Of a stretch of DNA of 64,000 bases, positions 15,863 to 19,035 are shown one piece after another. Every line of letters begins with the position of its first letter. The first letter of the stretch is position 1. The notes below the pieces were generated by a model that searched no databases, was not told where the DNA came from, and worked only from the letters and a program-made list of their open reading frames with translations. The translations under genes were made by a program, and so were the position numbers. The stretch lies in the NCBI GenBank assembly GCA_963726195.1, contig CAVSBO010000003.1, positions 320,001-384,000 of the forward strand, given 5' to 3'. The stretch is from Candidatus Thorarchaeota archaeon (lineage in GTDB: Archaea; Asgardarchaeota; Thorarchaeia; Thorarchaeales; Thorarchaeaceae).

Positions 15863-15958
15863 GCAGTTGCTTAGCTGTGAGCGGACAGGACTCACCATAT
15901 CCCAACGGACGTCGTCCACTCATGTCACGGTAGTCTACAGATGCCGCTGGTCTTGATC

Positions 15959-16388
15959 TCATCCCTTGAGGAGCTGGCGAATGACAGAAACGAACTCAGT
16001 GGCATCAGCGATTACATTCGGAATCGCTTCGAACAGCAACTGGTAGTCGACCTCAAGATACTGGTGAACAAGTAGGTTGCGCATCGAAATCATGTTCTGA
16101 AGGCTCTTCGACAAACGAGAGTCCAACACACCGTTCTGTTCAAGAATTGCAATCATTTCCCTGTATGAATCAGGAATCCCCAATCGCCTTTGGGCGACGA
16201 TATGACTAGCCACATCCACGACTGACTGAGCTACTCAGCTCGAATGACCGAGCAGTCGCCCGGAGAGTCTTTGCATCCGCGATGAATCGTTCATAGTTAG
16301 GAATGCGGACCGTCTTGAGGAATTCAACTTCCTTGATGATCATGGCCAGTCGTTTGTTTAGCAGTTTTGCATCAATTGCCACAATCAC
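15959..16388 (-). CDS. HEPN (DUF86) RNase toxin of an MNT-HEPN pair; frameshift near 16230
   Basis: RNLLVHQY (Rx4HxY) motif; PDSYRE; overlaps the MNT stop codon. Confidence 0.88.
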
Positions 16389-16784
16389 TCGCCGCCCAAG
16401 AACTCATTCAGAAACCTGTCCTCGGAGACCGACCAGTCAGGATAGTTGATCAAGACCTGCTCGACAAATCGATTCCAAAGACCCTCCTCCCGCTCGTAGA
16501 GAACGAGCCCGTCGTGTGCAATTCTGTGAGCCAGTGACCAATTGACATCCTCAATTGTGACGAAATCGAAGGCGCGCTCAGGACCTGTGAACTCGCCAGT
16601 CAGGACAACCCTTAGTTGCGATCTCTCTAGCCTCGATAGTGAAGGTACTGATACTGCGACGTCGTGGTCACTTCTTGGTCCTGATTCGTCCCTCAGCTCT
16701 GGACCCAAATAGAACTATGAAGTCAATCGGACAATTCGCGCTTGACAAGACTCGCCTCACGATGTCTTCCGAATCCAAGTGCAT
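16385..16784 (-). CDS. Minimal nucleotidyltransferase (MNT) antitoxin; frameshift near 16680
   Basis: MHLDSEDIV...IVLFGSRAEG joins in another frame to RSDHDVAV (GSx10DxD); GLVLYE. Confidence 0.85.
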
Positions 16785-17129
16785 GATTAATCTCACCAAG
16801 CTGTCACGTGGCTGCCTTGAGCCCTGTCCGATAACGAGAATTAGCGTCAGTCCATATAACGCTTGGGACTCGCGTGTTTTTCCACATAGGATACCATCTG
16901 TCGTTTCTGGTTCTCTTCTTCTCCAAGCCTATCTTGTGGGGCCAGAGTAAGCATCGGACCAATCTCGAACGTCCTTCTTCTTGCCCCACGGCGTATTTTC
17001 TGTATTATACTCTGCTATGACTTTCCTTCAATTGCCGATAGCAGGTGCTTTTCGCAGGTAATTCTTGTCCACAACTTGCTTGAGAATGAAATCCGCCAAA
17101 TCTGCTCTTGAGATGGCTGTTCCTACTTG

Positions 17130-17319
17130 ACCGTTCATTGTTAGTTGGACAAAGTTGGACACAGGAGTCTCTGTCCGCCCAGAAACGGCACTGGGCTCAA
17201 ACTCCTTGAGGTCAAGTTTGTGTCGTTTCAACCTCGAAGGCTGATTCCTTATCAGGGCATATAAGCTCCTACGAGGAGGTGTCCAAGTTTGTCCCAGCTT
17301 TCTGCAGCTGCCGCGTGCC
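17130..17319 (+). mobile_element. Non-autonomous ~188-bp mini-element (MITE-like), copy 1
   Basis: Interrupts a CDS; subterminal inverted doublets gttggacaaagttggacac / gtgtccaagtttgtcccagc; homologous to copy 2. Confidence 0.85.
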
Positions 17320-17529
17320 CTGAGTGCGAGAGCTTCAATTGACGCGCTCAATTTCAGAGCGAAAGCAACGATTGCGCTGGTAAAACTCATGATGCGTCCA
17401 GCATACGAAGAGATTGTCCACGTTGCAGAAATTGTCCGGGGCTCCGATCGCGATCGGACGATAGTACGCTTATCATTACTCAACAATAATCCCAAATCCG
17501 GTAACGTTAGAGTCGGCTACATAAGCAAG

Positions 17530-17717
17530 GGTTGACAACAGCTGCATAGAAGTTGGACAATCTTGGACATTCTGGAGTAGGAGCTTAAATAGCTCGGACC
17601 AGACTTCTCTTTGAGGTTGACTCGACACACTCCAGCCTCAAGGAGTACGACCCCAGTGCCGTTTCTGGGCGGACAGAGACTCCTGTGTCCAACTTTGTCC
17701 AACTAACAATGAACGGT
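17530..17717 (-). mobile_element. Non-autonomous ~188-bp mini-element (MITE-like), copy 2, inverted relative to copy 1
   Basis: 17652-17717 is the exact reverse complement of 17130-17195 (66 bp); the rest is diverged but colinear. Confidence 0.85.
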
Positions 17718-18111
17718 AGATGTTATGATGAGCTGGCGTACGCCCTGACTCTCCATCGCGGCAAGTATGTTTCGCATTCCTTGCGCAAGTGGCTTTCCCT
17801 TCTTTCGGGCGCGCGGACCAAGCGTGCTAATGACCGCATCCGCGGCGTTCATTGCGGCCGCAATTGCCTCTTGATCTGACAATTCGCCTTAGACAACCTC
17901 CAAGTGTTCGTTCTGCATGTTGAGCTTGGAAGGGTTGCGAACGTATGCAACAATGTCATTTCCTGAAGCAAGAGCTTGTTCTACAACAGGTCTTCCTGTG
18001 CGTCCGGTTGCGCCAAAAACCAGCAGTTTCATCTTTCATCCTCTTGTATGTAGTACTTCAAATTCCCGTCACATTCATCGATAATCTAATGTCTTCCAAA
18101 GAGCTATCAGT

Positions 18112-18834
18112 CTAGAGGTAAGCAACGATTACTACACTGGCAATCATCAAGAGCAGCGTCATGAGCCCGACCTTCCATGAAAGAGTGGTGCTCTCCTTTT
18201 CAACGATAAGGTCAGAGATTACTCCGACGCCGATAAAGAAGGGGAAAATCGCGAGTGCGGAATTGAAGACTCTGAAAGTGATTGAATACATGAGACCCAC
18301 AAAGAAGAGTTTGCCCAGTTCTTGACCGGGTCTTGTATCCTTCATCTGTTCTTCCAACCCGATGTGATGCAAGCTGTAAAAGATGGAGACCAGCAAAAGC
18401 GCCGGGATTATGCCGAATGCTTCCTCGAAAAGCTGTCTCAAGAAGCTGTAGAAGAACAGAGTTTCGAAGAGCACTCCCACCATCAAATAGAAGATTGTCC
18501 CGGATTTCCCAGAGAGATCGGGTCTGTGTCCCTTGTTCTTTGCTTCGGAGTAGAACATCGCAGCAAGCAGGGCCGCCAGTATTATGTCAGCCGCCATTGC
18601 CCATACCAGATTATCTCCCGGCAAACCAAAATCGTTGAAGGAAAGACCGTTTGTCTTCACCCACCATGTCGGGAGCAAGACACCCAGTCCAACAAGGGTG
18701 ATGACATCACGAAGGGCTACTCGGGTTGCTTTGCTGTTCCTAAACACCATCAGCAGACCACTCAGGAGCACGCAAGCAATGGCCGCCAAGAAAGCGACCA
18801 ATGTCCCTTCGGTCACAGACAAGTTGAACAGCAA
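18112..18834 (-). CDS. CPBP (CAAX/Abi) family intramembrane protease-like protein
   Basis: FETLFFYSFL, FYSLHH, multiple TM helices; start uncertain. Confidence 0.7.
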   Translation of the reverse strand: MLFNLSVTEGTLVAFLAAIACVLLSGLLMVFRNSKATRVALRDVITLVGLGVLLPTWWVKTNGLSFNDFGLPGDNLVWAMAADIILAALLAAMFYSEAKNKGHRPDLSGKSGTIFYLMVGVLFETLFFYSFLRQLFEEAFGIIPALLLVSIFYSLHHIGLEEQMKDTRPGQELGKLFFVGLMYSITFRVFNSALAIFPFFIGVGVISDLIVEKESTTLSWKVGLMTLLLMIASVVIVAYL

Positions 18835-19035
18835 TACAACCGTCGCATTGTCACCTGAGTTGTCCGAGGGATTGAGCCTTCCTCAAATGCGTTTCTCTAT
18901 CGTGGATTCGAGACTATCTGAGCCGCAAACCGCAGGCAGACGCTAGGAGCCTTTCATTTCAGCTTCTGGTTTGATTGAAACTCGCAAACAGACCGTCCGT
19001 CTTGGCTGCCAATCAGCAACCAAGATGGATTCTCA

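Follow-up and report, generated by a model that had tools for sequence, protein, structure and literature searches.

Elements of the IS607 family carry GG both at their ends and at their target, use a (G)GG target and leave no target duplication (PMC6188088). In CboIStron, an element of the IS607 type, the transposase and TnpB both specify TGGG, and the right end reads TCGG (bioRxiv 10.1101/2023.11.20.567912). Natural inversions, for their part, have been documented with repeats of no more than 23 bp, which come to resemble each other in the process (PMC3004938).

The locus described here lies in a window of 64,000 nucleotides (the whole stretch of DNA analysed) from a Candidatus Thorarchaeota archaeon, and consists of a broken oxidoreductase gene whose middle is reversed between two inverted copies of a short element. 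Like IS607, IS1535 and CboIStron, which combine TnpA with an RNA-guided TnpB, these elements show GG cores, no duplication, no terminal inverted repeats and subterminal motifs (TTGGACA in this case). Moreover, their AGGG target or TAM-like motif and their ACGG right-end tip differ at the same position as do TGGG and TCGG in CboIStron. Unlike the three described systems, the copies are gene-less, about 185 nt long and known from sequence alone, and their autonomous relatives in this genome measure 7.6-8.1 kb, have a tnpB enlarged to about 720 aa and bring large cargo genes along. Among TnpB elements, gene-less derivatives reduced to the guide RNA (stand-alone omega-RNA loci; PATE- or MITE-like elements) likewise keep both ends and the tnpB-proximal region and occur in many copies. 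Compared with stand-alone omega-RNA loci, the RNA considered here is putative, with no Rfam match and modest folding statistics.

As for the inversion, ectopic recombination between inverted IS or MITE copies, or between their inverted repeats, is the nearest precedent: the TIR-TIR inversions of ISWpi1 in Wolbachia (PMC3004938), an example of it, share with this locus a short inverted homology around the flipped segment, identical repeats and a functionless scar as outcome. However, the ISWpi1 inversions flip the body of the insertion sequence, whereas the flipped piece here is the middle of a host gene. The repeats also differ from those of ISWpi1, since they are the right ends of two different non-autonomous elements of the IS607 type, in an Asgard archaeon. 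With the switches of the serine invertases Hin and Gin, the locus has in common a serine recombinase family and inverted sites whose core is 2 bp long, by which the segment might in principle be turned over. In contrast to Hin and Gin, the present locus has no adjacent invertase, no enhancer logic and no functional product in either orientation.

The kind of event, an inversion between inverted transposon copies, is already known; it occurs here with a newly named element family in an Asgard archaeon. To our knowledge, there is no earlier bench work on the Asgard IS607/TnpB family found here. The locus reveals neither a new mechanism nor a regulated switch. It illustrates that one small gene can be struck twice by a target-specific transposon family, each copy taking its orientation from the strand on which its target motif lies, and that two inverted copies can then scramble the host gene.

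The anatomy of the locus is as follows (LE and RE, left and right end of an element):

15870-19030, about 3.2 kb: genome-specific island with a HepT/MNT toxin-antitoxin pair, the pseudogene with its two elements, and a CPBP/Rce1-like membrane protease
17028-17129, minus strand: C-terminal part of the pseudogene, 33 codons plus stop codon
17130-17319, LE to RE on the minus strand: mini-element A, of the A subfamily, with CC cores at 17131-17132 and 17318-17319
17130-17211: inverted-repeat arm, the RE of element A, pairing with 17636-17717
17320-17532, plus strand, opposite to the rest of the gene: middle of the pseudogene (flipped segment), 71 codons
17533-17714 (to 17717), LE to RE on the plus strand: mini-element B, of the B subfamily, its boundaries ambiguous by the shared GG core (17530-17531 and 17715-17716)
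17636-17717: inverted-repeat arm, the RE of element B, pairing with 17130-17211
17715-18032, minus strand: N-terminal part of the pseudogene, 106 codons, start MKLLVFGATGRTG, with a GATGRTG nucleotide-binding motif
17889-17891, minus strand: in-frame TAA at codon 48, alignment column LEVV-Q-GELS

The coordinates and translations of the three gene pieces, first given in an earlier note on this DNA, were reproduced as they stood. Joined with the middle turned back, the pieces form 633 nt, or 210 codons, in which the TAA is the only interruption. The joined gene is restored to the codon if one GG is kept per site, the last codon of the N part (ACC) overlapping the GG core at the right end of element B. 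The note had described this frame as seamless and had proposed aligning the reconstructed gene to intact orthologs. In a protein alignment the joined gene is indeed colinear with them, all 210 of 210 positions aligning without gaps to intact homologs of 210 aa.

Homologs were sought among longer proteins with the N part as query, the TAA being read as Gln, which gave 187 matches at E <= 1e-5. Among the best 120 of the 187, the majority are SDR-type NAD(P)H-binding oxidoreductases of about 210 aa; the homologs carry PF13460, and several are labelled 'putative NADH-flavin reductase'. By itself, the N part is 94% identical to P0001 and 91% identical to P0002. The complete joined protein shares 192 of its 210 residues with P0001 (N part 99/106, middle 64/71, C part 29/33) and 190 of 210 with P0002 (95/106, 62/71 and 33/33), with no gap in either case. 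Identity is similar across all three pieces, and each joint interrupts a conserved motif, ITST|LSA in one case and KG|QVGT in the other. The match of the joined gene to intact homologs is far beyond chance. Codon-exact junctions provide an independent and precise definition of the element boundaries and of the target (AG|GG|T, no duplication). The DNA encoding P0001 and P0002 was not found in the JGI metagenome contigs (best match 54% identical) or among species-representative genomes (best match 60%, a Bathyarchaeia MAG), so that the argument for an empty site rests on the protein alignment.

From these similarities, the broken gene can be classed as a predicted SDR-type NAD(P)H-binding oxidoreductase (PF13460) that has become a pseudogene. 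At the position of the TAA, nine of ten aligned homologs have Gln and one has Arg. In the flipped middle, the conserved DPND reads ASID (DPN to ASI at 17329-17337, plus strand) and a conserved Trp reads Arg (17455-17457, plus strand). The stop codon and the lost conserved residues therefore mark the gene as a decaying pseudogene. Two insertions, one inversion and one stop codon leave no intact reading frame. An alternative genetic code in which TAA encodes Gln was considered and dropped, this being a single case in an already broken gene. A 23-nt direct repeat (16726-16748 and 17874-17896, 83%), one copy of which overlaps the TAA site, was judged to be due to chance.

The element responsible for the two insertions belongs to a dispersed family. 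BLAST against the whole assembly revealed about 18 copies of the ~185-nt element, with unrelated flanks, and there are many more in sister genomes, a distribution that indirectly suggests that the copies may be mobilised in trans by the transposase. When the copies are aligned together with their flanks, the ends are conserved and the inner part splits into two subfamilies. Genomic matches restricted to the LE lie just upstream of the genome's single gene for an IS607-family serine transposase: the LE of element B is near-identical to the DNA just upstream of this tnpA (G000:C3:855049). The encoded TnpA scores 174 bits against NF033518 (cutoff 110). The gene, the sole IS607 transposase gene, is intact (G000:C3:855049-855672) and is located on the same contig, about 518 kb from the locus. 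Matches restricted to the arm lie at the 3' ends of tnpB-like genes, and the RE aligns to the last ~65 nt of five tnpB loci. These tnpB-like genes encode a Cas12f1-like TNB domain and show a weak TnpB-family match. Because the LE matches the region upstream of tnpA and the RE matches the 3' ends of tnpB, the inserts can be assigned, from their sequence, to gene-less, non-autonomous derivatives of the IS607 family that retain both transposon ends.

Other features of the family agree with those listed above for IS607 relatives. The LE contains two copies of TTGGACA and the RE two more in inverted orientation, 13-25 nt back from the tips, and there are no terminal inverted repeats. GG is found at both junctions in every copy examined, with no target-site duplication.

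The right end corresponds to the position where the guide RNA of TnpB is expected, and may therefore be regarded as a putative guide-RNA region. The consensus fold favours the sense strand modestly (-35.6 kcal/mol, against -26.9 for the antisense strand), and single-sequence folding gives modest z-scores of -1.6 and -2.1. A search of Rfam with the mini-elements and the tnpB 3' regions returned no family at E <= 1 except two chance lncRNA matches. Both elements contain an A/T-rich box about 55 nt from the left end, which, in the direction from LE to RE, reads CTTAAATAG in element B (17590-17605) and CTTATATG in element A (17255-17270). This box might serve as an archaeal TATA box for the candidate guide-RNA region.

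The arms of A and B form an 82-nt inverted repeat at 96% identity and are two right ends facing outward. The earlier note had described the outer 66 bp of the two inserts as perfect inverted repeats and the inner parts as diverged, and both statements hold: the outer 66 nt show 0 differences, whereas identity drops to 68% in the inner parts, which fall into the two subfamilies. Element B is 89-91% identical to three other copies in the genome and 81% identical to element A. The proposal of two independent insertions 213 bp apart is supported by this, the copies being of different subfamilies and each located exactly at the family target motif. On this evidence A and B are separate insertions, the second not a duplicate of the first.

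The target rule was derived from 14 copies in this genome and 15 of 20 copies fetched from sister genomes. Every LE that could be located begins with GG and has AG directly ahead of it, and 15 of 15 left flanks close with AG at the GG core. At the opposite end, the RE finishes in ...AACGG, with T as the next base in most copies. The target is therefore AG|GG|T, with GG common to element and target. The joined gene contains only three AGGGT or ACCCT motifs, at nt 98, 316 and 527, and two of the three are occupied (ACCCT at 316 and AGGGT at 527). The two occupied motifs are on opposite strands, and this is why the elements are inverted relative to each other. Genome-wide there are about 4,300 such motifs for some 20 element copies; a rough estimate, assuming even use of sites, puts the chance that some pair shares a three-motif gene at about 0.09. 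This chance rises if insertions persist in dispensable DNA only. Another double hit was observed at G000:C8:162251-162707, where an A-type and a B-type copy stand in tandem, 83 bp apart, in another broken large ORF whose downstream part contains a P-loop (GAAGTGKT).

The surroundings of the gene are dispensable, probably acquired DNA. The island is flanked by a gene for a PLP-dependent enzyme (Pfam PALP) and a gene for an ADP-forming acyl-CoA synthetase. The best named matches of this synthetase are in Candidatus Thorarchaeota, which makes the host an Asgard archaeon. In one genome of the same genus and two of the same family (G002, G007 and G018), these flanking genes are close neighbours, with nothing similar to the island between them. 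The oxidoreductase gene was not found with a 61-aa query in 60 genomes of the host family, and such relatives as have names occur here and there in other archaea and in bacteria. Dispensable, probably acquired DNA of this sort is where a gene could be hit repeatedly without harm. At 15959-16708, the island carries a HepT-like RNase (PF01934) and a Pol-beta-type nucleotidyltransferase (weak match to PF18765), that is, a toxin-antitoxin pair of the HEPN/MNT type.

Taken together, it is on balance probable that the locus is a historical rearrangement scar in a dispensable, already decaying gene, formed in three steps. In a first step, two gene-less mini-elements of the IS607 family, of different subfamilies, would have entered the 633-bp oxidoreductase gene separately, each bringing a left end, a box resembling a promoter and, as the expected site of the guide RNA, the tnpB-proximal right end. 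They would have landed at AG|GG|T after codon 106 and codon 177, inverted, with their right ends outward and 213 bp apart. In a second step, one reciprocal exchange between the inverted elements would have flipped everything between the crossover points, the 71 codons included, homologous recombination in the 66-82-nt right-end arms being the likeliest route. The third step, the appearance of TAA at Gln48 together with the loss of conserved residues, may have come before or after the insertions and the flip. The anatomy, the element family, the target motif and the colinearity with homologs are directly shown, and the order of the events, the place of the crossover and the enzyme are what we infer.

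Followed along the gene, the pieces now stand as N part, RE-B-LE, reversed middle, LE-A-RE and C part. This order would follow from homologous recombination anywhere in the shared sequence, or from an exchange of GG cores at the two right or the two left ends. Homologous recombination in the arms is favoured because they offer 66-82 nt of near-perfect homology, because natural inversions use repeats down to 23 bp (PMC3004938), and because arm B carries the ACAGAGAC variant of its neighbour A. This variant is a single base; it is found in A and in one A-type copy, and in none of about 20 other B-type copies. Its presence in both arms hints at exchange or conversion inside them.

The identity of the arms is in itself a weak sign of such gene conversion or exchange, because the arms are conserved across the whole family. 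A and B are the sole pair, among 105 pairs of arms, with 0 differences in 66 nt; unrelated pairs go down to 1-2, with a median of 6. No part of the family is better conserved than the arm, so that even unrelated copies are only 1-3 nt in 82 away from arm A. For example, the unrelated copy at C8:162520 differs from arm A by one base in 82.

The most serious alternative is that the IS607 serine transposase itself flipped the middle, without homologous recombination, by strand exchange at the GG cores of two like ends, either the two LEs, which point towards one another with the 213-bp middle between them, or the two REs on the outside. In vitro, TnpA of IS1535 joins two inverted left ends, separated by only 80 bp, in a paired-end complex (PMC6188088), and subunit rotation in such a complex would, according to the authors of that study, yield an intramolecular inversion. 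Moreover, all four ends at the locus keep an intact GG core and their usual flanks, and the genome has one intact IS607 transposase gene. However, this gene is some 518 kb distant from the locus, and neither PMC6188088 nor bioRxiv 10.1101/2023.11.20.567912 reports a transposase-made inversion for IS607. An exchange at the tips would also leave the A-lineage variant in arm B unexplained. Since the two routes give the same end product, indistinguishable at the level of sequence, it is the variant, the homology of the arms and the precedent of short repeats that argue for recombination in the arms, and a role of the transposase in the flip seems unlikely. If it were true, the locus would show that in nature a serine transposase can work as a DNA invertase when it meets its own mini-elements, and would suggest a route by which transposon ends become invertible switches. 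A flip made in this way would possibly be reversible and may still toggle. The wider interest of the locus is limited to this possibility that the transposase, not homologous recombination, made the flip.

The flipped orientation, as read in the sequence, rests on the assembly of a metagenome-assembled genome (MAG; 88.9% complete, 3.9% contamination, 19 contigs, the largest of 916 kb). The middle might truly be forward, with both insertions kept, and the reversed order might stem from a wrong path through the inverted repeats or from merged strain variants. In de Bruijn assembly, a segment between perfect 66-nt inverted repeats is ambiguous in orientation for k-mers shorter than the repeat, and the two orientations look alike from sequence inside the locus. 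Nevertheless, 19 contigs and a largest contig of 916 kb suggest that long reads were used or that the assembly is well resolved, a repeat of 66 nt is short enough for ordinary 150-nt reads to cross, and no contig with the alternative orientation is present in the assembly, in which the gene piece has a single match. The contiguity and the lack of an alternative contig mildly favour a correct assembly, and we regard an artefact of this kind as quite improbable.

A programmed ON/OFF switch or variant-generating invertible segment, comparable to those of the Hin, Gin and Fim type or to shufflons, is very improbable. Its geometry alone fits, a short segment lying between inverted repeats. However, in either orientation the frame enters an insert of about 185 nt and stops, so that the insertions alone kill the gene both ways and the TAA at codon 48 is an extra hit, to which the loss of conserved residues is added. 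No recombinase gene is found next to the locus, where the neighbours are the toxin-antitoxin pair, the CPBP protease, the acyl-CoA synthetase and the PLP-dependent enzyme, and the gene is part of an island to which nothing corresponds between these flanking genes in the relatives that were compared. The programmed switch was accordingly rejected, neither orientation yielding a functional frame, and the earlier description of the locus as a footprint of a gene dead either way is borne out. Finally, a single replicative intramolecular transposition of the Tn3 or Mu kind, producing the inversion and the second copy at one stroke, would yield two inverted copies around an inverted segment, but its likelihood is practically negligible, a one-step origin being excluded by the divergence of the inner parts (68% identical, different subfamilies), and IS607 elements are excised as a circle that then inserts elsewhere (PMC6188088; bioRxiv 10.1101/2023.11.20.567912).

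Larger elements with the same LE and RE as the mini-elements are also present in the genome. One of 8.1 kb (G000:C3:854973-863119) contains the sole IS607 transposase gene of the genome along with a tnpB that is broken and large ORFs that have no Pfam match, one of them of 1223 aa. Another, of 7.6 kb (G000:C8:106584-114215), has tnpB and is without a transposase. An intact tnpB-like ORF of 722 aa is found at G000:C16:26999-29167; its Pfam match is confined to the C-terminal TNB domain, and its stop codon lies inside the conserved right-end tip CAATGAACGG. In sister genomes, some B-type copies have identical right-end flanks, namely L071 and L075 (both in G003), and L072 (G001) and L081 (G003); either the insertions are orthologous between species or the contigs are duplicated. 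The 88-92% identity found among many B-type copies suggests a recent burst of such copies in the genus.
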